A stretch of DNA of 64,000 nt from assembly GCF_038025025.1 (NCBI RefSeq), contig NW_027117351.1, positions 248,001 through 312,000 of the forward strand. The letters run 5' to 3'. This document shows positions 1,938 to 45,175 of the stretch, one piece after another. The notes below the pieces were generated by a model. The model did not search any database. It saw nothing but the letters and a program-made list of their open reading frames with translations, and was not told where the DNA came from. Source of the DNA: Phyllosticta citribraziliensis (Eukaryota). Positions within the stretch are counted from its first letter, which is position 1. Every line of letters begins with the position of its first letter. Position numbers and translations under genes: made by a program.

Positions 1938-2865
1938 ATGGCTCCGACCAACCGTGAAAAGGCCATTACTTGGCTAAATAGCATTGGCATCCAAGAGCTC
2001 GTCGACGACTCCATCATGCCGCGCGAATCTCTTGGCCCCAACGACAACCCGATGACTGGAGCAGAGCCCGGAGCCTCGCCCTTGCTCCCGGTCGAGCGCT
2101 TCACGGACTCCCTCTTGAATACCCTCTTCGTCTTGACCCATCTCAGGAGCGACCACGCGGCAATCAAGCAAGAGCTGCTTGAGGCGGTCCACTTCAGGCG
2201 CAATACCAAGGGCCAACCCAACAGGAGAGAGAATTGTCTCATCAACCTCGACGTCAATCGCCTTGTCAATCACGCGAATAACGAACGTAATCAGAAGCGC
2301 TTGCGCGGCGAGCTGCCTCCGCGTGTCAAGAAGAACCCGGGGAAAATGGAGCGTGCTTTGGCAAAGATGAGCCTGGACATGGGCGGCGATGGGCAAGGAG
2401 AAGATGTGTCGATGACGGAGCAGAAGGCTGTCATCGGCCAGCACAACGGTACTATCGGCGAGAAGCGCAAGCGCAGCGGCAGCGACAGCAACAGCAAGAG
2501 CGACTCTTCACCCGCGCGGCCCAGCAAGCTCATGCATATGGAGTGTTCCGATGAGCGTATGGACCTCGCTCTCTCCGGTGCTGAAGACAGGGACCAGCTT
2601 TGAGGGTGGATGCGTGCCTTTGAGATGCAGCGATGGCGAGAGCAACAGGTGGTTCGTTGTGATGAAGGAGCACAACAGTTCGGGGAATGTATGGGGCCGC
2701 TGCGTCTGGTCACGGAGGTGCGCAAGTCCTGGTCAGTGCCTACCTGCCCTCCACCCAGCCTACATTTCATATTGCTCTCGAATACGCGACAAGTGCTGAC
2801 AGAGTGCTCATAGTGAAGTCCTCCACGAGACGTCGTATGTCATTGTTCACCAAATACTTCCCTGA
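1938..2865 (+). pseudogene. Family member P1 (most divergent): ORF 1938-2603, in-frame TGA 2601-2603, frame continues to intron 2732-2813, last exon to ~2865
   Basis: N-domain IGIQELVDDSIMPR...EP..LLPVERF...IKQELLEAVHFRR...LDV. After the TGA the same frame reads GWMRAF...VRKS-TG|GTCAGT...GCTGAC...TAG|, the same phase-2 intron as in other members. Exon 2 reads CEVLHETSYVIVHQILP. Confidence 0.65.
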
Positions 2866-3234
2866 ACCCGACGTTGCAGTCGCCGTCCCTGCGGGCAATG
2901 CCTCTGCTGATTGAGCCTTCCATCGGTCACATCTTCCATAACCATTCGGGGATGTTCTGTCACACTTGGACCGCGGAATTGCAAGTTTCGGATCATTTCG
3001 ACCGCGCAAAACTCGCAAAGTTGCCTGAAGACATGGCTTCAAGACGATGATTGCCCACCAAACCCACCACTGTAAAGCAAACTGCACAATACTAGCGCAG
3101 GAGCCGCACACATGCGGGCGGTATTGAGACTCGGAAGGAATGATGGACACACGAGGGTAGTGGCAAGAAAGGGAAGGACACTCGCTGGACAGTACAGCAC
3201 ATGGAGAAATTTGACAGCAACAAAGGCTGCCCTT

Positions 3235-3455
3235 TACGTCTGTCTTTGTTTACCTGCTCCGTTGGCCAGCCTATTTTTCAGTTGATTGCTGCCGTCTAGC
3301 CGTTTGCTTTGTTTCCATGTCCAATACCTAAGTACCTGTATTTCCGCCTGGTACTGACCTTTCGTCTTCTCAAACCTTCGATCTTTCTCTTACGTTCTTC
3401 CACCGCATTGCAGTGTTCCAATGGGGACGTCACTGACGACGCAGATTCGGAGTTC
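3235..3455 (+). repeat. Degenerate direct repeat, copy B (partner at ~975-1205)
   Basis: Same collinear words as copy A. Confidence 0.8.
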
Positions 3456-3675
3456 ACTTGGGTACTGTGTGACTACACGGATTTGCTGCCTGTAGCTCCA
3501 TAGCTAAGCCATGCACTGAAGGCCTTTGGCCCTTGGACTGGGTCGCGTCCTTCGTAGCGAAGGGAACTGTCCACTCAACTTGCAAAAAGAGAAAGACAAT
3601 GACGACGGAGCGCCGTTAGAAAAACATTCAAGGAGTGGCCAGAGTATGGAGAGAGACAGAACGGAGGAGGACTGG

Positions 3676-3830
3676 AAAAAAAGTGAGCCAATTGTGAGAT
3701 TCGAACTCGTGTTGCTTTTCTTCCGGACCCAAGATCAGCCATCAGTCCCGGCAGCGCCAACTCCAAGCCGAAGCTTACAGGTTATCCCCGCCAGATGAGC
3801 CAGCCGTTCAACCACTAGACCAGATGACCC
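3676..3830 (-). ncRNA. tRNA-like Pol III cassette E2
   Basis: Minus strand: GGGTCATC + A box TGGTCTAGTGG (3822-3812); B box GAGTTCGAATC (3708-3698); 3' TGGCTC pairs with 5' GGGTCA; T7 terminator (3682-3676); internal AAGC-TTCG-GCTT tetraloop hairpin. Confidence 0.65.
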
Positions 3831-5825
3831 AATAAGCTATTGGTTCTTGGGATAGTGGCTAAGTTTGCAGAATATATGCACGTTTTTCACGCACTGGCAG
3901 GATCACACAGTTTTCGACCTTTGACGAGTCCAAACCATGACTGCGAGCACCTCGACGAGATCATCCGCACTTCTTCATCCCGATGAGCCACGTTGCACTC
4001 ACAATCTACTATTCCTGACTCTTATTTATCGGCAGCTATATCAAGATGGATGAATCTTTTGCATTACATGAATCACCGAGAGGCCTGAGTTGAGCCGGTT
4101 GCTGGCACTCATTTTGTTATCATTATTGACACGAGCCCATGAAAGGGTCTAGTCCAACATCTTCATGAATTTTGCCGGGCGGTAGGTGCTTCCAGTAGGT
4201 GCTGGCCCTACAACGCCAACAAGCACTCAGAGCGAAGTGCCGCCTTGGACGATTCGACACAATTTATGCTGACGTTGCTTCGCTTTGGGGCGCCTTGCTT
4301 GCAACTTAGATCCATCCGTCGGCGACCACCTGCTGAAGACATGTCCAGGCAAGCCCACGCGTCGAGGTCACGCCCCCGTCGTGTTTTTTGTTTTGGTTGG
4401 TCGCATGCACGCTCATCCATCCACGACACCTGCGCTGCTGGCCATTTTCCCTTCAGTCACCTGGACCGCTGCACACCATCCGACCCGCTACTTCTTCCAT
4501 TCTCTACTCCCGTCGCCCTGCTTTCTCTCCGAAGATCCTCGACCACGCCATCCCAAGCCTTCAAGCATTAGCGCTCAACTGTCCGCTCGCCGACTTTTGC
4601 CCTCTCAGCCAGACTCGACTGCGCCGCCAGAGCATCATCCTCCTCTCCTACTTCGCCGACCGCTTTCTCGCCGTCTTGCCAGCAAAGTATTGCAGGCTAC
4701 GAGCCAGCATTCCCGCTTATCCCTCACCATTGCCATCTTCTCGCTATCCGATGTCGCCACGGGTACAGAACCTCGCCAGGAAACGACAAAATACAATTCT
4801 GTCCGCCGCACGAACCGATTGCCATCGCTTGAGCCTGACGTCCCGTCCAACCAGCCCACAACAACGGAAACATCGAGTTTGAGGTGCGCCGCCAAAATTC
4901 TGCCCTGAAACCCGTTCGGCCAATGCAACAGGCTCGATGCTCCCAGAAAGAAGAGCGAGCAGGCGGATGCCAGCCCCGCCGTCCTGCCGTGAAGCCCCTG
5001 TGTTTCTTCCAATAGCTGCCATGCCACTGACGCTTTTCCGAGCGAGCCGCAACAGCGAGGCAGTGGCTTGGTGCTTGCGCAAGCTTCATGGCTTGTTTTC
5101 GATCGGTGATGCCTCGGGGAGGTTGCTTGACGGCGCGATTGTGTGTCGATGATATAATTTCTCTCCCCGCCCTCTTCCAGTCATCGCTGTTCAACCCAGA
5201 GCCCATTGACTTCAGTTTCGACCTCGCGACGGAGGCAAATGTTGGATGTTGGAAAAGCTCGAGGTGCTTGTAACGAGCAATTCCCAACAGCTTTACAGAG
5301 CAGCGCCTGGCACGCTGTTTTCACTGAAGTCCTTGGCCTCCTCAAGCCGCAATGCACTGGCCCAAAAGACAAGGACAAGTAGGGAAGAAGCAAAATGGCA
5401 GGGAAAGCAAAGGAACAATTACGTCAATCGAATCTGCATCATGACACTGGCAAAGAAGGGTTTCCCCCGAGCAACTTTTGATTCATGTTTCCAGCATCGG
5501 CTGGGAAACGAAACTGCCCAAGTGTTTGGAGATTTAAGACCTTTCTCGCTTCTCTTCAAACTTCGTGACTACTTAAAGCTCTTCGCCCATCTGCATCGTT
5601 TCTGTGTAAATGGGACGTCTTACGGTAATCCGGCTTCTTTTGGGTAGAGACGTCGATATTTAGACAGTAACCATCATGAACGCCGTACACACTATACCTT
5701 GCCTTTAAAACTATCACTGAGGAAAAGCACCGCCCCATGTAGCCTCTAGAGGGTACCAGTGAGGTAGAAGTGCTCAAGCCAGACTCCTCCAAGTCAAGCA
5801 TCACGGCAGTGTTATTTTCAAGCCA

Positions 5826-5935
5826 GTTGACGGGCGCTCTGCAAGAATCGAACTTGCGCCTGCGCGCCAAGTGTTAATTTTCTCGCACCGCAAATGCTCC
5901 GCAGGCGCAAACTGAGCCGAAATTCTGTGTCGGCG
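5826..5935 (-). ncRNA. tRNA-like element E3 (degenerate tRNA or relic)
   Basis: Minus strand: D-stem-like GCTC...GAGC with A-box-like CGGCTCAGTTTG; perfect T-arm GCAAG-TTCGATT-CTTGC (5857-5841). No good acceptor stem or oligo-T. Confidence 0.5.
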
Positions 5936-6179
5936 CCTGAGGCTTGCGGGCGGTACTTTGGAGTAAATAAAAGCGGACGCGCTGCTTCTGCCCACAACAT
6001 CACCACCCATCGTCCTAAACACACCCGACGCCTCTACTTTCAGATCACCCTCTGCCTTTCTCTCTTCGTTCAAACTAACGACGAAAATAAAGCAGTGAGT
6101 CACTCTGCCCTTCAATGATTTGATCCCTCTGACTTTGAGTCGCAGAACCAAATCCTCCAACCCTTTCCTACAACTCAAA

Positions 6180-7070
6180 ATGTCTTCCAACATGAACGCA
6201 TCTTCCAGCGTCAACGCGGCCTCCGACCTCACCATGGCGGGCTCCACCTCTTCGGCCCCAGCCATCCAGCCCACTCAAAGCGCCCTCGTCTCGTTCATGA
6301 AGCACGGCCCCCAGAGCCTCATGGACGACGAGATCAAGCCTCGAGAAGTCCCCGGCCGCCAGAGCACCAGCAGCCGCGCCGCCAAAGCTCGCATCGACGA
6401 GCCCGACACACGAATCCTCTCGCCAGCTCTGTACCCTCAAGAGTACACCACCAAGCTCAAGCAGCTGGCTACTCTTTGCGTCGAGCTCGACCAGGTTAAG
6501 CAGCTGCTGCGCGACCAAGTCAGGCGTCGCCAGACCGGAGGACGCTACAAGCCTCGGGTCAGGTTCGCGAGAGAGGTGCTGCCCATCGACCTCAATACGG
6601 TCGTGAGGGAGCTTAAGGAGGAGAGGAAGCTCGCTGCCGCTGTCGATGCTGCGGTCGACCAGGCCAACGGCGGCGCGGACTCCGCGATGGACGTCGACAC
6701 GCAGACTCCCAAGGAGGACGCTGTCGGCAAGGGCAAGAAGCGCGCTGCCTCGCCAATGGACTCCGCCATGGAAGTCGACACGCAGGCGCTTTCAAAGAAG
6801 GCCAGGAACCGCCGGAACCGCAAGGCTAAAAAGCTTGCCGCCCTCTCCACGGACACGGAGATGAAGGACGTCGTCGGGAAGCGAAAGCGGAGCGCCGACG
6901 CGGAGATGGAGGACCGCGACGACACCCAGGCGTCCAAAAAGCCAAAGGACGCCCTCGACCTGTCCGATCTCGTCCGCGACCTTCCTTCATTCTCTCCTGC
7001 AGCCCGACTTGTCCCGGAGATCACGGACAAGCCGCTGCTCGATTGGTACCGCGCTTTCCCTGGTGCTTGA
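6180..7070 (+). CDS. Family member P2
   Basis: HGPQSLMDDEIKPRE...ARIDEPDTRILSP..YP...LC.ELDQVKQLLRDQVRRRQ...RFAREVLPIDL; internally repeated basic segments (GKGKKRAASP, GKRKRSADA). A GT-AG intron (7115-7172) follows the stop. Confidence 0.85.
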   Translation: MSSNMNASSSVNAASDLTMAGSTSSAPAIQPTQSALVSFMKHGPQSLMDDEIKPREVPGRQSTSSRAAKARIDEPDTRILSPALYPQEYTTKLKQLATLCVELDQVKQLLRDQVRRRQTGGRYKPRVRFAREVLPIDLNTVVRELKEERKLAAAVDAAVDQANGGADSAMDVDTQTPKEDAVGKGKKRAASPMDSAMEVDTQALSKKARNRRNRKAKKLAALSTDTEMKDVVGKRKRSADAEMEDRDDTQASKKPKDALDLSDLVRDLPSFSPAARLVPEITDKPLLDWYRAFPGA

Positions 7071-8267
7071 TGGAGGACGGGGTGGACATGAGGACGGCTT
7101 ACTCTACCGTTACGGTAAGTGTCTTCCTAATCAAAGGGAGGATCTCGAAGCTAATCATCAGTGCTCTCCCAGGCTCCAGACCGCGTTGAAACGGAATCTT
7201 CTCGCTACTCCGAGCTACGACAGCCTTTTTGTACAAAATCACGACTCCACTTCACGCGGGACATTGTAACGGAAAAAAGGCTTTGAGGTTCAGCTTGGGA
7301 ATGGATGGGTAATACTAAAGTTGGCGTGGTCTTCAAGGGTTGGGTGGAATCAAGGGCCTCGTCGGTACAGTCAAACCAAGAGAGCACAGAAACGCAATGA
7401 ATGCTTCCAGAATCTTCACCTACCATGACTTTGTATGCCCCGTGATTCTTTCTAAGTCCCGCTTGCTCTCAAAACTCCTTCGCCTTGTGACTCCTACCAT
7501 CTAGAGTCCTCGCCTCCCGACGCTGTACATGCTCCATTGTCCACATCTGCAGATGCCTCTGGGCTCGAAAATGACATTGTTTTGACCTCATGACCAGCGG
7601 CAGCAGATGGGTCAACCAACTAGCACGCAGGCTGACTAAAAGCGAGCGAAGTGTCCATGCAGGCGGAGGTTGGCGCAACTCCGCAGCAGGCGAGCAGTGC
7701 CCGACAGAACGACAAAGGCATCACTGACTTCAAAACAGTGCCCTGGCTTTGTTTGTCATCAAGCTTCCAGGGATAACACTGGAAATGCGCAAAGTGTCAA
7801 GTGTGGGCCCTGACCAATACCTCTTTTGCTTGATTCAACAATCTGCTGTCATGTACCCCTGAGCGCCTTCAGTCTCAAACCGGTTTTCTTGAAAGGTTTC
7901 CCTCGGTCATTCAATAACGAGGGGTTCTTTTCATGCGCTATCTCGGAGTAGCTATGACTGCCGCTTTTCCGGCCTCTTGGATTGAGGACAATCCATTGAG
8001 TGTCTACAATGCGATATTGTAAAGGTTCTTCCGCCAAGTAATGCGTTGTCTCATCGTCGAAATTCTGCCCAGTTTTCATAGACAACTTTCCGCTCCTTGA
8101 AATTGTATGCTCGATTCAAATTTTGGCATTGCAGACAGCAGTTCTGCCATTGGTCAGGTTCAGTCTTTTCCAGCGAAGGGGAAAAGAATGAAAAGAATCT
8201 CTACGTCGTCCACGAAAACACAGCTCTCTGTCCGAGTCAGACTCACCGACACAGGACAAAGCCCGAC

Positions 8268-9362
8268 TTACCCCAACTGGTCTGAATGGGGTTGTAGCCT
8301 GAGCAGCTGAGGCTGGGAAGCCCCCCAGTGAGGTGTGCGTAGCTTCGGCCGATAGACTCTTGCGACAACCCACAGGTATGCCTCCGCTAGGTCATGCGGC
8401 AGGCCTACGACCGTTTCATTTCCAAGCGTTCGACTGCAGGGGTATCTGTTGTCAGCCATGCTCGGTAGCAAATAGTGGAGGGGGGGGATGACGCACTACA
8501 ACCGCGCAACTCTATTTGCCATCACCACGTACTCAGATGCGAGGCGAGTTTGCCAGTACTCCTCTCTCAACTTGTTGAACTCGCTCTCGGCAAGTTCTTC
8601 CTCCTCGAAAGTCTTGTCAACAGCTGGAATATCGCTTGTGGCGTGGTATAGCGTCCTTATGGTGTCGTAAGTTGCGAAGATCTCCTCGTCGCTCTTCTTG
8701 AGAATACTCTTGTCGAGTATACTGCTCCTGATATTCTTGAATTCTCCAAGATAAGCGAAGAGTTGCGTTTTGAGGCTTGCCACAGCTCGACCTTCGCGCG
8801 GGCTGTGATCACCAGACAGAGGAGTCAAGTTGGACACTGCGGCGATGCACTGCGTAGCAAACTCGACGCGGGCTCTGAACGCAGCATCCACCGGCGTGGC
8901 GAATCGAATCTCCTCGCAAGGCGGCTCGTCCCCATCTCCCTTGCAAACCAACGACGACGCGCTGCAAGACACAATCGCATTTTTTCCCTCGTTGTCCATC
9001 TGCAGTTGTTGAAGAACTTCAGTGACATCCACGTTTTGCACGCCGGCTAGGAACCTGATCCGCGGCTTCATGCTGTGGTGCGTTTGGCGGAAGCGCATTT
9101 GCCCGCGCAGCAGAGACTTGACTTGGCGCGCATCCTCGCAGATGGAAAGCACTCGCGCAACGTCCAGGATGAAGTTCGAGTTCCACTCGTGGACCTCCAA
9201 GAGCCGGGTTTCGGGGTCGTTGAGCCAGGGTCTCTTGTGTTCGGCGTATGCGTGGGTTTCGTGCGGGCGCATGTCGTTGTCCATGATGTTTTGGATGCCG
9301 ACATCGAGGATTTTGCCCAGTGCGCGGGCCTCTTTGTCGCGCTTTGGGCCGGGAGCGTTCAC
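8268..9362 (-). CDS. Family member P3 (start uncertain: GTG at 9362, nearest in-frame ATG is far upstream); intron 8434-8496
   Basis: VGIQNIMDNDMRP...LNDPETRLLEVHEW...ICEDARQVKSLLRGQMRFRQ...RIRFLAGVQNVDV. Phase-2 intron after ARL: TA|GTGCGT...GCTGAC...CTGCAG|. Exon 2 YRTLGNETVVGLPHDLAEAYLWVV matches the paralogs' hydrophobic pattern. Confidence 0.75.
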
Positions 9363-15305: not shown

Positions 15306-18300
15306 TCACACGTTCCGCGGGCCCTGCAGCATGGCGCCCTCGACCCAGAACGTCGTTTCGACCCTTCTCGTCGTCACCATGCCACCACCACCGCCGCTGC
15401 TGCTGCCGTGCTCGCCCGCCGCCGGAGCAACCACCTCCTCATCTTTCTCAAAACTAAGGACCAGTGCCGTGTTCGTCTGGTCGAAGTGCTGGACCTGGGC
15501 GTCGAAATCCTTCTTGGCGTCGATGCGCGCTTGAATCTGGTCGACGCCGCGTTGAGACGGCGGGTACGCGTGGTCCAGTGCGCACCGCGCGGCTTCGCTG
15601 TTGGCGCCGTCGAGGACCGTAAAGGTGGCCAGGTCCGTGATGGCGAGGGTTTTGCTTTCTGCCTCGACGTCCATGGCATCTTCGTCTCCTGCTTCCACGC
15701 TGTCGGCGCGCCTCGTGCGGCGCACCTCGACGTCCTTGCGCTTGACGACCCAGATCGTCTTTGCGAGCCAGCCGTGCTTGCTCACTTCGGGCGGATCTGC
15801 TACGCCTGGCGCCCGCGCGAACCGGTCCACCCACACGCGCACCACGACGTTGTTGAAGTAGTGCGCTTCAAGGATAATCATGCCGTGAGGGCCGTACGTG
15901 GACTTGTGGCTGATCAAACCCGTTTTGTCGATGGGTCCAATGCCACCGATACCGAAGCGTGAACCACACATTTCCTTGATGGCTTCATCGTTGGCGTCTT
16001 TCAGGGTGTGGTAGTATGCTTCGCCAGGGACATACTTTTCCGCGCCCTCCTCAGGGTCAACTTCCTCCACATCGACTTCCTCTTCCTCGGACTCGGCATC
16101 CGATCCCGAATCTGAATCTGAATCCGATTCGGACATTGTCTCAGAGTCTTCGTCTTGGTCTGCAAACGATGGGCCAGGAAAGCGAGAGAGCATGTCCTGC
16201 TCCTCCTTCTTCTTCAACTTTTCCGCCTCCTTCTCCTGCTTCTTCGATTCTTTCTCTTCCCTCCTCATCTCCTTCTCCTTCTTCCTCATCTCCGCCCTCT
16301 CCGCCTTCTCCTTCTCCCTCGCCTTCTTCTCACTCCTCATCGCCTTCTTATCCTCTTCTGTCCTCTTGGTCCACGACTTGCGCCAGACCTGGTACATCCA
16401 CCAGCAGTCGTTCTTATCCAGAGCCTCGGGCGTCTTCTCACGCACAGGCTGCTGGCTACGCAGCTCTTGCTCAACCGGCTCGTACTCGTCGTCCGTCTCA
16501 TCTTCGCCGCTCGTCAAGAACGCATCGATTTCGCGCTGGTTGGCAATGTGCGCCTCCAATGCGTCCAAATTCCACGTCTTGCCACCGGGGCCAGGCTTGG
16601 GCGGTCCTGCCTCCTTCTCATCTTCCTCCGCACTGGCAGGAACAGGCGCATCATCAGGTGGCGGGACGTCCGTCTTCTTAGCAGCAGCAGCAGCCAGGTC
16701 CGGATTATCCTTCAGAACGCGCTTGTGGCGGTGTTGCAGTGACTGCGGAGCCAGAATACGGTTTGTCTCGTTGGCGTAGAGGATGCGGACGTCTTTCCAC
16801 TTAAGACCCGCACTGCGCCACGTGGCAAGGTGTTTGTCCGCTTCACCCAGTTCAAGGCAGCGCGCACCTTTGTTGGAGGGGGGCGTCTCAAACTTCTTGT
16901 CAACCATGATGATGCCGTCGTGATCTTCAGGTACACCCGAGTCTGTGCTGGGAGCATTCGCGCCTTGTTTCGACACCTTCCCCGGGGTTTTCGGACTCCT
17001 TTTCGCAGGCTTTGCCGCTGATTCCTCCAGCTCGTCCTGCTCTTCAATCGGCACATGAACGGCCTCAAGCCAGGCCCTTCCTTTCCGATACGCAGGTCGC
17101 AGGTTGTTGGTGTTTATCGGTTTCGGCGGAGGCGTGGTTCGCTTCAAATGAGGAGACCTCAGATTGCCGTTGGTTTCAGGGTCGTCATCACGATCCATCT
17201 CATCAGCCAGGACTTGAGCACAGATCGGTGCGTGAGCTTTCATGGCATGCATGTCGCCTCCATACTTCTTGAAGAAAGTCTTCACCTCAGGCGAACCAAT
17301 GGGTGACTCCAGTGCGGGCAGACCGTGTCTGTTGCCTTCAGATTCAAAACGCAATTTGCCCGGCTGCTCTTGCTCATGAGAAGTCTTGCGCTTCTTGACC
17401 CTTGTTGATGCTGCTTCTTCGGGTTTTCTCTTTTGAAGAGCGTAATTGTGCATACTGATGGGGCCATTGTGTGCAAGAGTCCCATTTGCCTGGCCACGAC
17501 GCTGCACCACAGTCTGCGTCTGGGTATCCGCATCAGAATCAGGCTCGTCAGACTCAGTGGCAACGAGCTCAGAAGCGGGCTGCTTTGGAGGAGCCTTCCT
17601 CTTCACTGGTTTTACTGGCTTCTTCCCGACAGTCTTCTTTGACGTTGAAACTGGAGGCCTTCCGCGCCGCTTTGGAATCGCTTTACGAACGGCGTCAGTC
17701 AGCGGATCTTCGCCTTGGTCGTCGTTGTCGATGTCAGACTCGGGCAGGGCAAGCTGCTCCATCTGGTCTTCAGCCTCGCGCTTTTGCTGGTTCTGCCTCT
17801 CCGTTTCGGCCCGCAGAGCCATGACGTCTTCGCCAAAGCTCTCAAGGGTCTGCTGCCTCTCTCTCCTCTGGCTCTTGCTCTCCTCGCTTTGAATGCCGTT
17901 CTCCTCGGGACTCTTCGCATTGGAAGCAGCAGAGGTGGCAGCGTTTGGCGTCTTGACATTGGTTGCGGCTGGGAGCTTCTGGACGATGGCAGTAGCAGCC
18001 TGCCAGCCAGACGGCTGACCACTGGCAGCACTGGCCTTTGGTGGTGCGTCGAGCTTGAGACCTGGCGTCGTACCGGCTGTCGATGGGATGGGAGCGGTCG
18101 ATTTTGGAGCCGATTCAGTGTTGCGAGCCGTGGTGCCTTTGTCGAGAATCGAACTTGGACCACTGCTCTGAAACAATCCCAGAGTTCTTGTAAGTTCCTT
18201 AGCCCGGCTCTGTTCAGCTGTCAAATTGCCCTCAGCATCGCCATTCTCATGCTCGTCAGAGGAGCTGTCGCTCAGTGGGCTCTCGCTCTTTTCGCTGGAA

Positions 18301-20306
18301 ATGGAAATGGCACGCTCCCGCGAATGACCAATTTCAGCAAGAGGCGGCTGTGTCGTCTTTGCGACTTGAAGGATTTGCGGCTTTGGATTGATGACCTCTG
18401 TTGCTCGATTCCGCTCGGCCATCATCTTGGCCATCTGCTCCCTGCTCATCATCGAAAATGGGCTCGGGGCAACATTCGACAGCGTAGACGGCTTGGGGGT
18501 TTGATCGTGAACAATGCCCGCATCAGGGCGGGGCTGTCGACGAGGGCTGTCAATCACATCCTGCTGAGGGTCTGCCGCGCTTCCAAGACCAGAATGCTTC
18601 TGCTTCACGGGAGTCGTCTTCGGGACAAACAACGGCTCTTGCTCGTTGGAAGCACTCGATCCCTCAAAAAGACTTCCAACGTCATCGTCGTGCTCTGTCG
18701 CTCTGATCGGCGTGTCGTGCCGGGCCCGTTCACGAAGCAACTTGCTTTTGATGGCTCCCGAGGAAGGTGTCGCCTGGTTTGGCGCCGCAGGCTCGACCGT
18801 GGTACTGCTGCCGTCTTGCTCAGGGTTTCGGCCACTTGCAGTGCCTGACGGCGTCACTTCGTCGTCATCGTCCTCGTCGCTTTGGACAAATGGGCCAATG
18901 GCAGAGGCTGGCCGCACTGGCTTCAAGACTGGCTTTGCCCTCCAATGAGCGTTTGGTTTCGCTGCTTCTGTAGCATTGAGTCGTTGCAGGAGGAGTCGTG
19001 CGGCTTGTTCAAGATACGGGCTGCCGCAGTTGAGGACATCATCAAGCTCACCCCTCTCAAATGATTCGACGGCGAAATCCATGGCCTTTTGTTTCTTCGA
19101 CTCCTCGTCATTCGCAATTGGTTGGGCACGGCCTCTTTCTGCATCTGAACGTTGGCTTGCAGTAACTGTCATTCGTTCATCCTCGTGGGGAACATGGTCG
19201 CGTGGACGGGTAACTGCTTCCTCGTAGGCTGGAGGCGCCTCGTGATGGCGGCTTGATTCACGGTCATGACGGACCATGCGTTCCTCCTTTTCATGTGGTC
19301 CTCGACTGCCCATGCGGCGGTCACGCATTTCATGGTGATTCCAATCGGTGCGAGGGGCGGGTGAAGTCTCCCAGGAGCTCTGTCGCGCATTTCCATACAA
19401 TTGTGCATCATCGCGTCTCTGACGCTCTGCGTTGGAGGCCTGGCTTAAATACGGAAGGAAGCCGCTTCGGACCTGCGCTTGGGTGTATCTGAGCTCTTCA
19501 TGTTCTACCTCGCTGCGGTGTGTGGCGTTCCGGAAATCGACGTGTCCACGATACTCGTCCGGGTAGGGCGCCCGCCTGTGTCTGTCCTCCGCCATGTATC
19601 TCGGGTCTTCAGCTGGGATACCGTATGTGTGAGAGGCGTGACGAGGTGGAGCGCGATCGTAGCTGGAGTCGTGGCGGCGGTAATGAGCGGAGGACTCTGG
19701 CGGAAGCGTCTGATCAGAGGGAACCATGCGCGGGTGCGTCGATCGCTGCCGGGTTGCGCGGTGACTCGTCTCGTACTCGTCGACTTCCCATCTACTCACA
19801 GGGCGGACGTATGTCTCTTCCACTCGTTCAGGCCGCTCGCTCTGACGCTGATCTCTTGACTGACCGTAGTAGTTGGTCGTGTTGGGCTGGAATCCAAAAC
19901 CAGACTCGCGAGAATGGTGGTCGGAGTAGTAAGCGTCTCCGAGGTGAACGACCCTCTGGCCGCGCTGCGTGTCTAATGCTGCAGGGCGGTGGTGACCGAG
20001 GCTAGAGGCGGGCTGTTGTTGTCTGAACCAGGCCTCTTGTCGCGGCGAGTCGGAGTGGCGGGGAGGGACGACGTGCGAGGGCAGGTGATGGTGAGGTTTA
20101 CGACCATGATCTGGAGAGATGTGCCTCTCGTAAGGATTGGTGGAGCCTCTATCATGCGGCCATGGAACATTCGCTTCAGTGCTGCGCCTGTATGCGTCTC
20201 GGCGCCGCGCATAGTGGTCGCCGCGCTCGCTGGGAGCGTTCGTCATCGTGAGCACGCCGCCAAGTTTGTTTACTTGACTGCTCGGCGTCGACGAAGAGAA
20301 TGTCAA
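15306..20306 (-). CDS. Large (up to 1666 aa), mostly disordered putative nuclear protein with an AT-hook-like motif, a Myb/HTH-like segment and a globular C-terminal domain
   Basis: 5-kb uninterrupted ORF; KRRGRPP motif; ADKHLATWRSAGLKWKDVRILY...SLQHRHKRV; charged coiled coil; C-terminus WWMYQVWRK...FTVLDGANSEA...FWVEGAMLQGPRNV. Confidence 0.85.
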   Translation of the reverse strand: MTFSSSTPSSQVNKLGGVLTMTNAPSERGDHYARRRDAYRRSTEANVPWPHDRGSTNPYERHISPDHGRKPHHHLPSHVVPPRHSDSPRQEAWFRQQQPASSLGHHRPAALDTQRGQRVVHLGDAYYSDHHSRESGFGFQPNTTNYYGQSRDQRQSERPERVEETYVRPVSRWEVDEYETSHRATRQRSTHPRMVPSDQTLPPESSAHYRRHDSSYDRAPPRHASHTYGIPAEDPRYMAEDRHRRAPYPDEYRGHVDFRNATHRSEVEHEELRYTQAQVRSGFLPYLSQASNAERQRRDDAQLYGNARQSSWETSPAPRTDWNHHEMRDRRMGSRGPHEKEERMVRHDRESSRHHEAPPAYEEAVTRPRDHVPHEDERMTVTASQRSDAERGRAQPIANDEESKKQKAMDFAVESFERGELDDVLNCGSPYLEQAARLLLQRLNATEAAKPNAHWRAKPVLKPVRPASAIGPFVQSDEDDDDEVTPSGTASGRNPEQDGSSTTVEPAAPNQATPSSGAIKSKLLRERARHDTPIRATEHDDDVGSLFEGSSASNEQEPLFVPKTTPVKQKHSGLGSAADPQQDVIDSPRRQPRPDAGIVHDQTPKPSTLSNVAPSPFSMMSREQMAKMMAERNRATEVINPKPQILQVAKTTQPPLAEIGHSRERAISISSEKSESPLSDSSSDEHENGDAEGNLTAEQSRAKELTRTLGLFQSSGPSSILDKGTTARNTESAPKSTAPIPSTAGTTPGLKLDAPPKASAASGQPSGWQAATAIVQKLPAATNVKTPNAATSAASNAKSPEENGIQSEESKSQRRERQQTLESFGEDVMALRAETERQNQQKREAEDQMEQLALPESDIDNDDQGEDPLTDAVRKAIPKRRGRPPVSTSKKTVGKKPVKPVKRKAPPKQPASELVATESDEPDSDADTQTQTVVQRRGQANGTLAHNGPISMHNYALQKRKPEEAASTRVKKRKTSHEQEQPGKLRFESEGNRHGLPALESPIGSPEVKTFFKKYGGDMHAMKAHAPICAQVLADEMDRDDDPETNGNLRSPHLKRTTPPPKPINTNNLRPAYRKGRAWLEAVHVPIEEQDELEESAAKPAKRSPKTPGKVSKQGANAPSTDSGVPEDHDGIIMVDKKFETPPSNKGARCLELGEADKHLATWRSAGLKWKDVRILYANETNRILAPQSLQHRHKRVLKDNPDLAAAAAKKTDVPPPDDAPVPASAEEDEKEAGPPKPGPGGKTWNLDALEAHIANQREIDAFLTSGEDETDDEYEPVEQELRSQQPVREKTPEALDKNDCWWMYQVWRKSWTKRTEEDKKAMRSEKKAREKEKAERAEMRKKEKEMRREEKESKKQEKEAEKLKKKEEQDMLSRFPGPSFADQDEDSETMSESDSDSDSGSDAESEEEEVDVEEVDPEEGAEKYVPGEAYYHTLKDANDEAIKEMCGSRFGIGGIGPIDKTGLISHKSTYGPHGMIILEAHYFNNVVVRVWVDRFARAPGVADPPEVSKHGWLAKTIWVVKRKDVEVRRTRRADSVEAGDEDAMDVEAESKTLAITDLATFTVLDGANSEAARCALDHAYPPSQRGVDQIQARIDAKKDFDAQVQHFDQTNTALVLSFEKDEEVVAPAAGEHGSSSGGGGGMVTTRRVETTFWVEGAMLQGPRNV

Positions 20307-21335
20307 TGGAGATGATGCGCCAACTTAAGATACTGTGTCGATGTTGAGAGTTGAAGTTAGAAGTCGGTAGAGGGTCAAGGTGTGGCGGTAGGTGGAAGTT
20401 GTTGGTCCATGTAGAACAAAAGGGCAGAGGGGAATGTCGATGGAGATGACTTGCAAGCTCAGCTTACCGTGTCGGTATCGAGAGTTGAAGTCAAAATCAG
20501 GAGAGGTTTGAGGTGTGCGGTAGGTGGCGGTCGGTGGTCGATTAAAACCAAGAAGTCAGAAGACAACCACCCGGGGACGTGCTCCAGGGGAGTTGACGAA
20601 AAGTGAGGCCAAGTGCAGAAAGCATGCACACAGCACATGCTAGCGCTATGCTGCCTTTTGGCTTTTGGAACGACTTTTTGGGAATTCCGTCTCTTGCATC
20701 AGCTGCTTGAGTGCAGTGCAGACAGGAAAATCTGATCGACGCAACGCCAAATCTACTCGGGATCTTGCTCCTCCGCCATGTATCCTTACCAGCTTCTGGC
20801 CCAAGTGCATTTGTGCAAGAGGCAGGGAAGCTTATGGGGTGGTTGGCATGACCTGGCTATATGCGCAGGCTTGCCGAACTATTTCTACTCCAAGCTCCTC
20901 AAGAGAGAATGGTATTTCTTGAGGTCCAATGCTTTTTGCTCATGCCGACCTGAAATAACACCCAAAACTTTTGTCTGCCGGATCGAGCTCGAATGTTCGG
21001 GGTCTTTTGATCCTCCTCCTCTTCCTGAGACGCAAACTGCCCAGACACGCATCCAATTACCTATGGCCCCGTTTTCTGCCGTCCGGAGTGAGAGGCGAAA
21101 GTGCACTTACAACACATTTTCCGAGGATTCCGCCGCGGCACTCACACCGCATCTAAGAATCTCTCGTATTGATTCCGATCGTTGTGCAAAGCCCACTCAC
21201 CAGAGGCAATCCAGAATGAAACCAAGCCTCGCCAAACCTAACAATCCAAAGTGAAATAATACAGACCAAGCCGCAAGGCCAGACGAGCACGCCAGCCACC
21301 GCTTTTCTTTTCCGCTTCATGTGACCAGAAGCTCT

Positions 21336-33038: not shown

Positions 33039-33058
33039 CCCCCCCCCCCCCCCCCCCC
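33039..33058. repeat. Poly-C tract upstream of the F-box gene
   Basis: Run of ~20 C. Confidence 0.9.
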
Positions 33059-33112
33059 GGCCACCGTCTGCTCTGCTGAAGACACGACTCCCGCTTCGAC
33101 TCCCTTGTCGTC

Positions 33113-38710: not shown

Positions 38711-38979
38711 CCTGTCTTGGTGAAGTTGGCGGCGCGGTGGAGTAGCAAGACAACCAACACTACCAGCCACGACACTTACGCAGCTAACCAACGCCAGGCT
38801 CCGAAGAGTATGCTTTATATTTTCAAAAGTTTGATTCCTTCTCAAGGATTGTGTAGGATGCCAGTTGTGGACGTTTGGCGCCGTGGTACGATGGCATCTT
38901 TCAGGTGCTGCCAACCACAGAGGCGGATTCCGCGTTCGATACCCTGCCCTTCCGATTTTCTTTTGCCCTTTTTTTTTTG
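38711..38979 (+). other. Possible further tRNA-like Pol III relic (E8)
   Basis: A-box-like TGGTGAAGTTGG (38718-38729); B-box-like GCGTTCGATAC (38932-38942) followed by T-runs; spacing longer than in the other elements. Confidence 0.3.
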
Positions 38980-39844: not shown

Positions 39845-39963
39845 AAAAAGGAATTAGGACCAAGGTGGAATCGAACTTAGGAGCGACTGTGTTGGTTCAT
39901 CTTGCACAGAGGCCAAGTAATCAAACCCGGTTTGTAGACGTAACCAATTGCGCTATCCGACCC
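39845..39963 (-). ncRNA. tRNA-like Pol III cassette E6
   Basis: Minus strand: GGGTCGGA + A box TAGCGCAATTGG (39955-39944); B box AAGTTCGATTC (39878-39868); 3' TTGGTCC pairs (WC or wobble) with 5' GGGTCGG; TTTTT (39849-39845); internal CAAAC/GTTTG hairpin. Confidence 0.6.
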
Positions 39964-40465
39964 ATTTCTTGATCCATGACTGAAGGTCAAAGTTTTCAAA
40001 TTATATCCTAAAAAAAAGTTCTTAGGTTGCCTGTGCTATTTTCAGCCGGAAAGGGACGAATACTTTGCCAATTAATCGACAAGAACCAGCACCACACGTG
40101 CAGCTGCACAGTTATTTCCCGAGCTGCAAGCTTTGGCGCTACGATCAAGACCCGCTCACCATGAGCGTGGTGTCGCATCGGCGTAGGCGACGCGACGCAC
40201 ACCGCCTGGCAGAACTCCTCCATGTTTTATGGCACCAAGGTAGGTAACGTTCGCGAGCTTTACCTCTCTCTTCCTCTTTCCTTTTCCTTCCAAACTTGAA
40301 GGAATGTCTTGTCGTCCTGCGGTCTGGTCGCAACACCGTCTACCAGTTTCTCTTCAAACTTTTGACGCCATCTCGCTGTCGCCACTTCTGCCACCGCCAC
40401 CACCACCACCACCCACCATCACCCACCCAGCGAAAGGGTTTCAGAACACTCGGTCGCACTTCATC

Positions 40466-41810
40466 ATGAGTGCCTCCGCGTCAGCCCTTGGGGCGGAAAT
40501 CCCCAGCTTTTCTGAGGCTGATGAGTCGCAAAGGCCACTTCTGACAATCCAGCACGTGGGCATCAACAACATCCTCGACAAAGATGTGCAGCCACGCGAA
40601 CGCTCCCGTGACAATTCAAGAGCGCGCATCGACGAGCCAGACGTGCGCATCTTGAGCCCTGAGGAGTATCCGTACCATTTTCTTCGCGCACTCGAGCGGC
40701 TTGTGCGCCTATGCGACGACCTGGCCCAGCTCAAGCTGCTGATACGCCGCCGCGTCGATTGCAGGAAGAGTGACGCAAGGTATCGCACACGATGTCGGCT
40801 TGCGCGAGAGGTCCTCACCCTCGACCTTCATGCTGTCCACAATGATCTCTGCGACGAACGCGAAGAAGACGTGTCCGCCACCGATAGGGCAGCCTAGGGC
40901 ACATCGCAGCGTAAGCGCCCCGCCGACTCGCCCATAAGGACCGTCGAGCAGCAAGCAAATGCCAAGAAGCCGCGAATGAACTTTCCGGAACAAGACGACG
41001 AGCTCAATGATGATGTGCATATCAAGCAGGAAGAGGAGCGGGGCGACGACCAGTACATCAAACAAGAAGAGCAGGAATGCGGACTACGATATGTGCTGGA
41101 ATACGCGCCCGGTGGTCAGGATATCGATCAGGAGGACATCAAGCAGGAGGACGTCAAGCATGAGGAAGAGCGGAGTGATGACCAAAATGACGACGACCCG
41201 CAGGATGGTGAGCCCAGTGCCCAGGCATCGAAGAAGAGTCGGAGGGGCACAGCCCACAGAGCTGGCAAGGCACGCAAGGAGCAGCAAGAGAGAAGGGAAC
41301 GGAAGGTAGAGTACGCCAGGCGGACAGCCGACATCTTGAGCGCCCACCCTCGCCACGACGACGCTCTCACCAAGGACTTCAACTCGACTGCAGAGTCCAG
41401 CTGGATCCTGCGGCTGCTCCAATCCCAAGTCAACCGTCTCGGAGAGATCAGGCGCCGCCTGGACTTCAGCGAGCAGGACGCAGAGCCGCAGGCTGCCAAG
41501 CTCGCCGCGCACCTGGCTGCCTCGTCGGCGCTCAGTGAGGCCACGCGCACGCTGGATGGAAAGGACAAGTGGAAGTTACTGCAGCACCACGTGTTGGACA
41601 TGGAAGACGACCGCACGCACCTGGAGCACAAGGCCGTTGTTCTCAAGACGAGCATCCGCAAGCTCTAGTACGTCCGACCCTCCTTTCCCATCATGCGCGG
41701 CTGTAGAGTAGCCTGAGTTGACTGACTTCCGACACAGCGAATTCACCAAGGAGAAGAATTATCGTCTTCGGAGAGATATGGAGGCAAGCGTTCTCGAGGC
41801 ACTCACTTGA
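40466..41810 (+). pseudogene. Family member P6 with in-frame TAG at 40895-40897; intron 41668-41737
   Basis: VGINNILDKDVQPRE...ARIDEPDVRILSPEEYP...LCDDLAQLKLLIRRRV...RLAREVLTLDL. After the TAG the same frame reads GTSQRKRPADSP...IKQE repeats...AAHLAASSALSEATR...RKL-TA|GTACGT..CTGAC..CAG|, then exon 2 YEFTKEKNYRLRRDMEASVLEALT*. Confidence 0.85.
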
Positions 41811-42163
41811 AGCCATAGGCGCGTCTGCCAGTGCCATCAAGAGTTCGCAAAGACAGTCTTGTATCATGCAGCACCACGACCACCGACCAGCTGTACCGCC
41901 ATGCGTCGACGACAGAAGGCAGTGCCTCTCTACTCACATCAGCCACGCGCCAGAGCAGCCAGACGCGCTTTCTTGTAGGGATCAGCAACATTCACGCCCG
42001 ACCCCCTCACTGTCCACGGAGCAGCCATGTCTCCTCTTCTGCAAAGGTCTCGGGAGCGGAAGCCACCAACCCACACAAAGGCAAGCCCCCCAATTTCATC
42101 GCTGCCGAAACCTTCCTAACACGCTTGACAGCACCTCCAGACAACCGCCCAGTTAGTACGGCA

Positions 42164-42268
42164 GTTGGCACTCTTTGGCACTTTCAGCGCTCTATTTTGG
42201 ACAAGAAGGTGTTGGGAAAGGAGGGGAAGGCTTGGATTGCTTGGTATTCGAGGGGCTAGAGGATCGCT
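42164..42268 (+). repeat. Conserved non-coding block downstream of P6 (partner 45293-45397)
   Basis: TTTGGCACT..GCGCTCTATTTTGGACA.GAAGG.GT.GG.AAGG..GGGAA..CTTGGATTGCTTGGTATTCGA shared between the two copies. Confidence 0.85.
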
Positions 42269-42861
42269 GTGTCGTGCATTGCATTGAATTTACTACACAA
42301 AGCCGCCCTACAGGCAACGAAATGTGTTTCGGCGTTGCGATGGGAGCGGCAGTCGCAGGCGCCATTCATTGTGCACATAGGACAAACGCAAGTAGATGGG
42401 AGGCGTAATTTGGAGCGACAGCACCTCTTCATGTTGCCTCGAAGCGCGACCACCCACACGAGGGCCAGCAACCTCAACAGCGTTGCTCTCTGAGCGCACC
42501 TGGCTGCGTTGATCACCTACCTACGCACCTACACGGAAAGGCTCTCGACTCAGCGCCGCGGCTCCACTGCCTACCGCCCGAAAGCTTGGTCAAACCTTTG
42601 TCTAGAAACACATCTTCTGACCCCCTCGGCCGGCGCTCGATTGCTCGCTTTGTTGATTGAAGCGGGTGATGCGGTCTAATTCTTCTGTAGATTTTCTTGT
42701 GATGACTTGATTTTTGTTACTATGACGCGATGGGCGCGTTGGGCGCGTTTGGAAATGAGCGATGGTGCTAAGAAGACAGAGATTGGTTGGGAGTTTGTCG
42801 TAGAAGGCTCGCGTCAGGATTGCGCAGAGCGGTAGAGACAATCGCAGGGTCAGCCGTACCT

Positions 42862-43102
42862 AGCCCGGCGGCTTAGTTGATCATTCAAACAGAGCTAGCT
42901 GGTACCTTTGACAATGGTGGGGCATGCCTTTAACTATATAATTTTGTTCAGCAGTCATTTCTTTCAAGTAAGTCTTAGGTCCTTTGGCGACGTTGGGAGA
43001 TGCTTTGGAGTCATCCACATAATTGAAAAAGTGGCTCTGATTCGGCTGTAAAAGGCTTCTAGAGTATCAAACAGTTCGAGCCTCCTTCCGGGCTTACTTT
43101 TT
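42862..43102 (+). ncRNA. tRNA-like Pol III cassette E7 (two alternative 5' ends)
   Basis: AGCCCGG (42862-42868) pairs perfectly with CCGGGCT (43088-43094) and is followed by A-box-like CGGCTTAGTTGA. Internal family-type start GGTCCTT + TGGCGACGTTGG (42978-42996). B box CAGTTCGAGCC (43072-43082); oligo-T from 43098. Confidence 0.6.
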
Positions 43103-43992
43103 GTTTTCTTTTTTGTCTGTCCTACTTCTTTTTGCGGGCTCGGATCTCTATCTCTCTGCCTCTGTGCCTGTCGTTTTTGCTCCATGGCGATCTAGAGTAG
43201 CGTCTTTGGCATCGGCTCGCCTGTCTGGCTGCTGTGGCTGTTCTTTTGGGCGCTCCGCTACGAAATGAATTCATCCAGGCCCGACTTTGCAGACTCAAAT
43301 TCTCACCTGAAGATTGTTGGCCCTCTCTCTGTAGCTCTTCACCTGGTCGCGTTGGCATGCAAGGAATCGCTAGTGACGAGGTTGTGTTTGATGGCGGGTG
43401 TTGTCTGCGCCCCAGAAAGCAGAGTGCAGCAGTCGACAAGGCGCATTACGTACCAAAGAGTCAACACTCTCTCTGTCTGATGTAGGGCCTCGTGCACAAC
43501 AGCTCACTAAGACCATCAGCAGCAGTAGTAGTAGGAGCGCGCACTCTGGCTGCTGGGCATGATGCCGCTTGGTACATTGAGTACTTACCTTACTCTACCC
43601 TGCCCAGCCAACCACTGCCCGCCAATTCCGCGTCTTCGCAACTTGTGCCAAAAACTTGCAATTCCTTTTCAAGGCGTGACTGAGCGCCGAAGTACCCAGG
43701 TTGCGGGCGCTGCGTAGATTTCCATCTGACACTGGGCCAGATCACCCGGACCTCAACGACCCGATTCCTTCGGCGCGTCCTCTCCTCGACTTTGTTCGGT
43801 GCACCGAAGCCAATTGTTTTGCGCCTGACGTCTCTCCAAGTTTCGCCGCCGGGCGCACCTCGTCGTCCGCATTCTCTTGGTGTTGACACCCAACTTCAAC
43901 GCCTACCATCATCACTTTGTCGCCAGCGTTTTTCTCCACAACAACAAGTCCTCCACGATCCCTCCCTCTCTTTCGAATGAGCGCGATTCACC

Positions 43993-45175
43993 ATGCCTAA
44001 GATTACGCATGTCAAGATTCGCGATGCCTTGACGCGCATCCAAGATGTCGGAGTGGACAACATCCTCCATGACCACATCAGGCCGCGCGCTCCACGCAAC
44101 GGTGACCCGAGCTTGAAGATATTGATGAACGAGCCCGACACACGCATCCTGAGCGTTCACGACTGGTCCCAGCATCTCATCACGACCATAGACAAGCTGC
44201 TCATCGAATGCAAGGACCACCCGCGCGCCAAGGCTCTGCTTCTCCACCACGTCCAGAAAAGACAACAGGACACTCGCATTCGCGAACGCATGCGGCTGAT
44301 CAGAGAAGTCCAGGCGACTGACGTTGACGCCGCGCGAAAGGAAATTGCGGGTGGGGCCAATCCGGGTGGAAAGCGCAAGCAGAGAGCCGACTCGCCGCTC
44401 GATGAGCATATCCACAAAGCTGAGCAGCAGCAGCCCACGAAGAAACAGAGGGTTGATCTCAAAAGTCTGAGCTTGGGAGACAAGGGACAGAACACTTCGT
44501 CGAGCAACAGCAATGGTGCTCGGCGCCCGCCCGCGGCAAGTGGCATCAACGCCCTCGCGCCCATCAACACCAGCGACAGCGCTGAGCGCCCGACCACGGG
44601 AGCAAACACCCGCGCCCGCGAGCCCTTCAGCACGAACGGTGCTCGCCACCCACTCATGGATAGCAGCGTCAGTCTCCTCGCGCCAACCCCGACCGCCAGC
44701 AACAACACTGAGCCGCCGTCCGTGGGCTCCAATCTCGACACCCATCCACCCAGCAACGAAGCGCTGCAGGCTTTCAGGCGTTTCCGCCACAAGCGCAGCT
44801 GGGTCACCGAGTTGCTTGCCGAAGACCTTGACCGCATCGAGGCGACAGAGAAACCGAAGCTGCGAAGTTCTCAGCGCACATGATTTCGTCGTCCTCGCTG
44901 GGTGACGCGACCCGCGACATGGTCGGCAAACGCGACGGCGAGTTTCTCGAGCACTACAGGCTCCGGGTGCTGGATGAGCACTCTTACCTGGCGCACCATC
45001 GCGCAGTCACCCAGACGAGCGCTCGGAAGCTCGTGTAGGCCTTTCCTCTCTGTGCCTCTCCGGTTCAGCCTTTTGATGCGAGGTGGCTAACGGTTTCTGC
45101 AGCAAGTACATCAGAGAGGAAGCGGCACTCAATCTGAGCTGGACGCTCCAGAAGCGCGTCAGGGACTTGTTGTAA
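43993..45175 (+). pseudogene. Family member P7 with a frameshifting deletion near 44840; intron 45035-45102
   Basis: VGVDNILHDHIRPR...LMNEPDTRILSVHDW...KALLLHHVQKRQ...RLIREVQATDV. After DLDRIE the homologous AAKFSAHMISSSSLGDATRDM...EHYRLRV...SARKL lies in a different frame. Exon 2 reads VKYIREEAALNLSWTLQKRVRDLL*. Confidence 0.85.

Follow-up and report, generated by a model that had tools for sequence, protein, structure and literature searches.

Gene families that are confined to one lineage and arrayed in tandem are generally framed by the concept of birth-and-death evolution. RIP, which needs a duplicate of about 400 nt at about 80%, and the single-gene poison-antidote drivers such as wtf and Spok provide further points of reference. 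So does A-to-I mRNA editing, which has been reported from Sordariomycetes and from Pyronema; in Aspergillus and Botrytis it was not detected (PMC11156358). According to PMC11087585, Ame1 came to interact with Tad3 in Sordariomycetes, and the interaction requires MV500-501 (ancestral KN). The gene cluster described here bears comparison with each of these systems.

Architecture and extent of the family

The window, meaning the whole stretch of 64,000 nucleotides analysed, carries 8 of the 16 family copies on one contig of Phyllosticta citribraziliensis (C14:168-295 kb; Table 1), and four genome searches, each with a single protein, returned no family copy outside that cluster. P. citribraziliensis is a citrus-dwelling fungus of the class Dothideomycetes. 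It is heterothallic, with MAT1-1 in every strain examined in bioRxiv 2020.04.14.040725, whereas P. capitalensis is homothallic. The clustered paralogues have one-to-one orthologues in related species, and the orthologue pairs of P2, P5, P6, U3 and U8 carry starred support.

Table 1. Family copies in the window and the repeats that flank P7, numbered from the first letter of the window.
Feature	Position	Strand	Description
P1 ORF	1938..2603	+	221 aa; N-domain and basic/Ser linker; ends at TGA 2601-2603
P1 decayed tail	2604..2884	+	Putative intron 2732-2813; out-of-frame last-exon remnant 2837-2884
P2	6234..7070	+	278 aa; N-domain and linker, without C-domain; same end in sister species
P3	8268..9584	-	Open copy; no ATG beside N-domain (GTG at 9362; nearest in-frame ATG 9584); predicted intron 8496-8434
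P4	10256..11436	-	Intact, 374 aa; intron 10426-10371; P3/P4/P5 clade
P5	13031..13991	-	TAG 13232-13230 (codon 254 of 302) inside C-domain; intron 13158-13107
P6	40466..41810	+	TAG 40895-40897 (codon 144 of 424) just past N-domain; intron 41668-41737 seen spliced
P7	43993..45175	+	34-nt deletion 44838-44843 between two 6-nt repeat copies; out-of-frame TGA 44881-44883; predicted intron 45035-45102
Direct repeats	42187-42268 and 45315-45397 (span 42187..45397)		Flank P7
P8	45976..47126	+	Intact, 363 aa; intron 46986-47044

The encoded proteins consist of a helical N-domain of ~120 residues, a disordered linker, which in intact members joins a basic NLS-like part to an acidic disordered part, and a helical C-domain. 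To judge from this anatomy, the intact members are most likely nuclear adaptor-type proteins. Alone, the N-domain is predicted to fold with a pLDDT of 94.6. Pfam gave no match for the family ORFs (9/9), with no Pfam family common to two or more of 64 members; a PDB sequence search returned nothing specific (best E=0.32), the ESM Atlas no usable feature match, and Foldseek no match at E<=0.001. The best VIA-align results were non-specific, being AAA+ lid-like for the N-domain (Z 4.8, rmsd 4.3, 87 aligned) and a generic helical bundle for the C-domain (Z 8.4, rmsd 7.2, 98 aligned). The absence of a structural relative does not show that either domain is a new fold. A literature search by titles and abstract beginnings found no publication on the P1-P8 family.

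The preliminary description of this DNA had noted that the N-domain is open in the broken copies, and this holds across the entire cluster: all 16 N-domains are stop-free in the 182 kb examined. The C-domain is lost or broken in 6 of the 16 copies, an imbalance that speaks against pure decay. C-domains were recognised with a family C-domain profile, for which the reversed-sequence null reached at most 5.2 bits, and a six-frame read-through profile search of the 182 kb found neither orphan C-domains nor N-lesioned relics above the null. Identity to the sister species, P. citrichinensis, is 91% in the N-domain and 80.5% in the C-domain for U8, and 93% and 83% for P6; the family is, on sequence grounds, under weak constraint even where intact. 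In other species, where lesions were taken from automatic gene models and not from DNA, damaged N-domains occur in P0109, P0106, P0050, P0058 and P0073.

Broken and shortened copies

All four lesions listed in the preliminary description were found, namely the stop codons of P1, P5 and P6 and the frame change at ~44840-44850 in P7. A recognisable region beyond the lesion, likewise claimed for all four, is present in P5, P6 and P7 (67, 81 and 46 bits with the C-domain profile) and is lacking in P1. In the latter, the TGA and the open N-domain stand as described, the best of six spliced candidates after the TGA scores 3.0 bits, and no C-domain match of at least 6 bits lies downstream in any frame. 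The last-exon remnant matches the sister-species model at 11 of 16 residues (E=0.18, weak) and, because this shared remnant sits in another frame, P1 has more than one lesion. The 221-aa product is present on two contigs. We abandoned the idea that the TGA stands in place of a Trp, which had come from alignment to the P. capitalensis orthologue (local scores 21-26, profile scores <=3 bits).

P2 and U3 show a fixed loss of the C-domain, and in P5 the loss has happened repeatedly. The paracitricarpa orthologue of P2 (P0112) also lacks the C-domain and has an N-domain identity of 67%, and the upstream copy U3, whose C-domain is missing, shares its end residue with one of two sister-species models. 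An overlooked frameshift in P2 was considered and dropped, its sister-species orthologue stopping at the same residue. Neither P2 nor U3 had been noticed as a C-domain-less copy earlier.

In P5, 48 open codons follow the TAG (chance of so many clean codons 0.68-0.84 under assumed rates), and the 253 codons before it have stayed open over the whole branch, for which the chance is 0.10-0.36 if the copy were dead, again under assumed rates. The stop column holds Trp in P. citricarpa P0107, and P. citrichinensis P0106 has the same end; TGG ancestry is nonetheless not certain, because the paralogues carry Leu there. P0106, a protein model rather than a DNA codon, also lacks 43 N-domain residues, and P0107 is a gene model bridging a frame change. 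Both citriasiana records (P0108, P0111) end at residue 136, and paracitricarpa P0110 ends after the linker start. Across five species, at least two separate events have truncated P5 beyond its N-domain. As far as sequence can tell, only P5 among the four lesions resembles an editing substrate, and its orthologues are also broken elsewhere.

Past the P6 stop we counted 280 open codons, confirming the earlier figure of about 280; the chance of so many clean codons after a recent stop is 0.34-0.57, i.e. about 0.3-0.6, under assumed rates. The site is Gln in P. citrichinensis (P0022; both records intact), and the orthologue is full-length in paracitricarpa/citricarpa. The stop replaced this Gln and, among the orthologues compared, is confined to P. 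citribraziliensis. P6 is transcribed, and spliced beyond the stop. Amino-acid changes on its own branch (1 vs 4 in the N-domain, 5 vs 6 in the C-domain) show no excess, so that post-stop relaxation is not demonstrated and the counts are compatible with a recent stop. The open codons preceding the P5 stop, the splicing of P6 past its stop and the P6 branch without excess change are observations that count against pure decay.

Over P7, one X4 contig has 34 extra bases and keeps the frame, and another joins 42182 to 45313, skipping 3130 nt together with P7; depth is about 15 over P7 against about 70 in the flanks. One related genome is intact at P7, and another, in run X4, appears to lack the copy. 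Verification of the bases in reads, proposed earlier, was achieved for two of the lesions, those of P6 and P7, in a read-contig comparison that covered 40300-47200. Within this region, an independent DNA contig of run X2 spans the P6 TAG with 0 differences at a depth of 3.1, and a run X1 contig crosses the P7 site with 0 gaps. The X1 contigs, guessed to be RNA and possibly from the source strain, have a hole across the P6 TAG (40858-41013). For X1, 8 letter changes are listed (1 A>G), of which 7 are shown at 43050-43073, outside genes.

Explanations for the broken copies

The broken copies probably reflect loss-of-function mutations of an ordinary kind, in a tandem family that is under weak constraint, has expanded within the genus and evolves by birth and death. 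Spare copies would arise by duplication via unequal exchange between flanking repeats, and would then be struck by transition or transversion nonsense changes and by repeat-mediated deletions. Lesions would fall after the N-domain because roughly two thirds of the coding region lies there and the C-half is less constrained. Broken copies would remain transcribed or readable for a time and then erode, as P1 may have done, or vanish, as P7 may have in a relative; recoding would be unnecessary for the observed pattern. Inactivation is lineage-specific: P6 and P7 are broken here and intact in relatives, and P5 is broken at differing sites by species. Of the three options raised in the preliminary description, pseudogenisation fits best, N-domain-only products keep comparative support from P2, U3 and P5, and there is no support for regulated editing or read-through combined with poison-antidote logic.

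The fixed loss of the C-domain in P2 and U3 and its repeated loss in P5 imply that N-domain-only proteins may work. It is conceivable, although in our view rather unlikely, that the C-domain is a Phyllosticta accessory which the proteins can do without, and that truncated proteins with an N-domain and NLS are kept or favoured by selection, for instance because they compete with full-length copies. On that view the old, fixed cases would be P2 and U3 and the young ones P5, P6 and P7, a division that we hold to be comparably doubtful. Along with the shared ends of P2 and U3 and the separate truncations of P5, this proposal draws on three P. capitalensis clusters without a C-domain (P0035, P0038, P0046), on the 32 weakest representatives (P0051-P0082), all of which score <=11.1 bits with the C-profile, and on the predicted autonomous fold of the N-domain. 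However, the lesion sites are scattered from codon 144 to about 285 with no common cut point, and the position of all four lesions after the N-domain, correctly observed earlier, is not beyond chance (P(all four outside)=0.165). Furthermore, P7 is apparently deleted entirely in one relative, the N-domain is damaged in the sister-species models of the P1 and P5 orthologues, and conservation of the P5 C-domain matched that of its N-domain over most of the copy's history (62-72% vs 68%). Transcripts with a premature stop far ahead of an intron may be subject to NMD, which also counts against functional truncation. In its broadest form the proposal holds that an undescribed helical domain, present in Phyllosticta and at least one further Dothideomycete, gained a helical-bundle C-domain by fusion and multiplied within Phyllosticta, and that the C-domain was repeatedly shed as forms with an N-domain and NLS work, perhaps as dominant-negative tuners in nuclear conflict or recognition; this, too, we regard as a minority prospect. 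If truncated copies were functional, the cluster would represent modular domain loss under selection.

It is very improbable that sexual-stage A-to-I editing converts the UAG codons of P5 and P6 into UGG, as in PSC pseudogenes, or that these codons are read through to yield short and long products. Two of the four lesions (P5, P6) are in-frame UAG codons in an otherwise intact coding region, each with a purine at +3 and an A that is unpaired in local folds; P5 adds the Trp of its P. citricarpa orthologue and the end common to the sister species, and P6 the splicing of an intron past the stop. According to PMC10776026, disordered hypothetical proteins are over-represented among the products of PSC genes, which often derive from non-TGG codons. 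Against this, at ~30-31 residues before the nucleophile Ser, MV occurs in 0 of 3 DUF726 (Ame1-family) genes (residues 31-28 are ARSR, AKSR and SLAR), a position estimated by offset from S531, not by alignment to FgAme1. Editing also cannot account for P7, a deletion, or for P1, whose TGA precedes a decayed tail; among the compared orthologues the P6 stop occurs in one species only, and P5 has an uncertain TGG ancestry and orthologues with non-editable lesions. That at least two of three nonsense changes are TAG has a probability of 0.67. All three stop codons (P1, P5, P6) are followed by G, which is not a leaky context and counts against read-through. A-to-I editing of these stops is unlikely, and restorative editing in a Dothideomycete of the P5 UAG, at which the sister-species model also ends, is highly improbable; editing of P5 or P6, if it occurred, would add one more class to those with fungal mRNA editing. 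RIP, mentioned earlier as a source of CAG>TAG changes, is unsupported as a process because the copies lack RIP composition (TpA/ApT is >=1 in none of the 8 copies and none of the 32 two-kb bins) and have diverged far too much, the best paralogue matches being 274 nt at 70% (the longest) and 78 nt at 81%. Excision of the lesions as short introns of recent origin (48 nt at the P5 stop, 38 nt over the P7 break) is barely credible: the second-assembly models P0084 and P0010 do skip both stretches at GT..AG ends, but the X1 contig over P7 contains no such joint (this contig could be DNA, unspliced RNA or antisense RNA), and both skips would delete conserved helix residues. Assembly error, to which we likewise assign next to no weight, is largely refuted. 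The reads are contigs only, X2 has low depth, and P1 and P5 fall outside the compared region; nevertheless, X2 and X1 agree at the P6 and P7 sites, the P1 product recurs on a second contig, the P5 stop is also where a sister-species model ends, and the second assembly's models skip the P5 stop and P7 break.

Significance and comparison with known systems

As found, the cluster is a clear case of gene-family turnover that matters little in itself. It carries a warning that annotation pipelines conceal damage of this kind by inventing short introns or fusing models, and its by-product is a 16-copy, genus-expanded family with a 120-residue domain that is confidently predicted to fold and has no Pfam or clear PDB relative.

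With RIP-mutated duplicates the locus has in common that the P6 change, and that of P5 if it came from TGG, fit CpA>TpA; unlike them, all 8 window copies have TpA/ApT of 0.25-0.56 and (CpA+TpG)/(ApC+GpT) of 1.15-1.48. The likeness to wtf and Spok drivers goes no further than a multigene family that is clustered, evolves fast and has both long and short forms, whereas Pfam searches gave no sequence link and fold searches no clear match. Compared with the Fusarium graminearum PSC pseudogenes (PUK1, AMD1, FgRID; PMC11156358, PMC10776026), the locus is alike in its in-frame UAG, largely disordered hypothetical protein, open downstream frame (P5, P6) and Trp in one orthologue (P5). It is unlike them in that the host, a Dothideomycete, lies outside the classes with reported editing, no MV-type Ame1 was found among the three DUF726 genes, the P6 stop is private to one species among the orthologues compared, and the other lesions are a TGA or a deletion. 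From birth-and-death families it departs in having neither a Pfam name nor a clear structural relative, and in some C-domain-less copies that are kept across species and unexplained by pure decay. It resembles such families in its tandem diverged paralogues, in the presence of recently broken copies next to old ones, in the apparent presence and absence of P7 between flanking repeats, and in the parallel loss of one duplicate, P5, in several species.

A tandem gene family in one cluster

The genome of Phyllosticta citribraziliensis, a species of the class Dothideomycetes, spans 31.4 Mb in 22 contigs and carries, by N-domain profile search, 16 copies of an unnamed gene family within the 182 kb examined, eight in the window (P1–P8; G000:C14:248001-312000) and eight upstream (U1–U8). 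An excerpt of bioRxiv 2020.04.14.040725 gives the fungus as a citrus endophyte. Four single-protein whole-genome searches found no family copies elsewhere in the genome. A full-length copy comprises an N-domain of ~120 residues, a disordered linker that carries acidic tracts and basic NLS-like ones, and a helical C-domain, and has a single phase-2 intron near its 3′ end; P8 is identical to an uncharacterized protein of the species. No Pfam family and no entry in a PDB sequence search matched these proteins, an Atlas search gave no feature match, and the publications listed by a literature search included none on them. Fold matches are weak: for the N-domain, AAA+ lid-like helices at Z 4.8; for the C-domain, generic bundles at Z 8.4. 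With their acidic linker, NLS-like motifs, and Arg and Asp residues that never vary, they may be nuclear adaptor proteins.

A tree of 52 N-domain sequences, with none left out and two long branches flagged, gives one-to-one orthologues for P2, P5, P6, U3, and U8, and groups P3, P4, and P5. A P. capitalensis relative of that group (protein model P0018) has two tandem N-domains and one C-domain, a form found in eight of nine cluster members, judged by length. P3 has GTG where other copies start with ATG, the nearest in-frame ATG lying 74 codons upstream; this is possibly a start-codon lesion before the N-domain. U3 is a 155-aa N-domain-only form, fused with U4 in public models P0002 and P0003.

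Features of the cluster (window coordinates unless stated; − denotes the minus strand)
Feature	Position	Detail
U1–U8	G000:C14:168-202 kb (L021-L025)	N-domain profile search; 7 appear intact
Direct repeats flanking P1	1019-1200 and 3265-3445	123 nt at 74%, 43 nt at 81%; resemble pair flanking P7
P1 segment compared with sister species	2163-2549	N-domain end and following linker
P3 GTG	9362-9360 (−)	
Inverted repeat just downstream of P5	12329-12433 and 12910-13014	105 nt, 82%
Tandem units upstream of P5	14834-14962	four of 32 nt; weak copy at 45588
Open frame between two copy groups	15309-20324 (−)	1672 codons; no Pfam match
Pfam neighbours, a set called ordinary	23312-59466	WD40_4 (coronin-like), arylsulfotransferase, histone-fold NF-Y-like, DNA/RNA non-specific endonuclease, L-type lectin, ubiquitin hydrolase with DUF3517
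P6 intron	41667>41738	GT..AG
Junction in deeper X4 genome	42182 to 45313	beside direct repeats flanking P7
Spliced X1 transcript	43074-44044 (−)	intron 43588-43507 (−); reaches P7 5′ end
X1 contig over P7	44079-45442	
P7 six-base repeat	44838-44843	
X1 contig over P8	from 45434	depth 240

The lesions, copy by copy

The three stop codons (P1, P5, P6) and the frame change (P7) all lie at the coordinates given in the preliminary description. In run X2 (depth 3.1) an independent DNA contig runs across the P6 TAG with 0 differences, an X1 contig spans the P7 site without a gap, and the truncated P1 protein is present on two contigs; assembly error is an exceedingly improbable source of the lesions. 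Gene models of a second assembly bridge the P5 stop with a 48-nt gap and the P7 break with a 38-nt gap, which suggests that it shares both; that these two lesions are removed as new introns is hardly credible.

P6 is full length in the sister species P. citrichinensis (85% identical, two records), with Gln at the stop position, and therefore CAG or CAA became TAG in P. citribraziliensis, CAG being the one-step route; the P. paracitricarpa and P. citricarpa orthologues are also full length. The P6 intron is spliced in X1 as predicted, so P6 would be transcribed past its stop, X1 being taken as RNA by guess only. There is no excess change on the P6 branch (N-domain 1 vs 4, C-domain 5 vs 6), counts that fit a recent stop and do not prove relaxation.

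At the P5 stop the P. citricarpa orthologue has Trp, and Leu stands there in both P4 and the P. capitalensis relative; descent from TTG is therefore as parsimonious as descent from TGG. In P. citrichinensis the model stops at this position too and is without 43 N-domain residues. As judged from automatic gene models, other P5 orthologues end at residue 136 in both P. citriasiana records and just into the linker in P. paracitricarpa (four contigs), where the P. citricarpa model shows a frame change.

P7 in one X4 genome has 34 extra bases, with the six-base repeat present twice and the frame kept, which makes the window copy the product of a short-repeat deletion. A second, deeper X4 genome appears to lack P7 altogether, on the basis of a single contig with 67 letters on its short side and a fall in depth over P7 from ~70 to ~15. 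Over P7 and P8 the X1 contigs still contain the introns, suggestive of antisense transcripts across both genes.

P1, which had been described as a single-stop gene, is instead an eroded copy: its tail after the TGA scores ≤3.0 bits with the C-domain profile, not above null, versus 46–89 bits for P4–P8, and a remnant common to a sister-species model sits in another frame. Identity to the sister-species model is 18/45 at the N-domain end and 70/84 in the following linker (Fisher p about 1e-6), the reverse of other copies; diversifying selection, a chimera, or a mis-modelled gene are possible.

Chance, short forms, and recoding

The preliminary observation is for the most part real, and its pattern lies within chance. 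The N-domain makes up 31–41% of each coding region, and four random lesions all fall outside it with probability 0.165. Of the single-base changes that could create a stop in these genes, 61% give TAG, and two TAGs among three stops are thus expected (probability 0.67). A 1063-nt X4 contig with 71 differences guided the assumed rates per branch of 2.5–4.5% substitutions and 0.5–1.5 frameshifting indels per kb. These give a probability of 0.34–0.57 that 280 codons stay clean behind a P6 stop of random age, and of 0.68–0.84 for the 48 behind the P5 stop. The N-domain is better conserved than the C-domain whether a copy is broken (P6 93/83%) or intact (U8 91/80.5%).

Six of the 16 copies are without a working C-domain, and the N-domain is open in all 16. 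The sister-species P2 stops at an identical residue, and in P. paracitricarpa P2 has no C-domain; the U3 end is matched in one of two sister-species models; P. capitalensis has three clusters that are C-less; and the N-domain is predicted to fold alone (pLDDT 94.6, pTM 0.86). With the C-profile, the 32 weakest of 73 representatives all stay at or below 11.1 bits; two of these 32 were looked up, and one is named, from Byssothecium circinans. A protein of N-domain plus linker is therefore viable in this family, P2 being the most convincing case. Functional N-domain-only products are a rather unlikely explanation of the young truncations P5–P7: their positions are scattered, a relative seems to have lost P7 by deletion, and N-damaged models exist in other species. 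RIP finds no support (TpA/ApT 0.25–0.56 in 8/8 window copies; best paralogue match 274 nt at 70%). The best explanation, and probably the right one, is that this fast-evolving tandem family decays by birth and death.

Recoding of the P5 and P6 stops by A-to-I editing or read-through is very unlikely. In its favour, the A that editing would target is unpaired in local folds of both, one P5 orthologue has Trp, the P5 end is common to the sister species, and PSC genes are, in an excerpt of PMC10776026, often disordered hypothetical proteins that can come from non-TGG codons. Editing cannot, however, account for P1 or P7, and X1 contigs leave a hole over the P6 TAG. Excerpts of PMC11156358 place genome-wide editing in Sordariomycetes and Pyronema and report none in Aspergillus nidulans and Botrytis cinerea; those of PMC10041177 and PMC10962958 add nothing on Dothideomycetes. 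Editing requires Ame1, whose Tad3-binding MV500-501 replaced ancestral KN in Sordariomycetes (PMC11087585, in excerpt). The three DUF726 genes of this genome all differ from MV ~30–31 residues before the catalytic Ser, a position set by offset.
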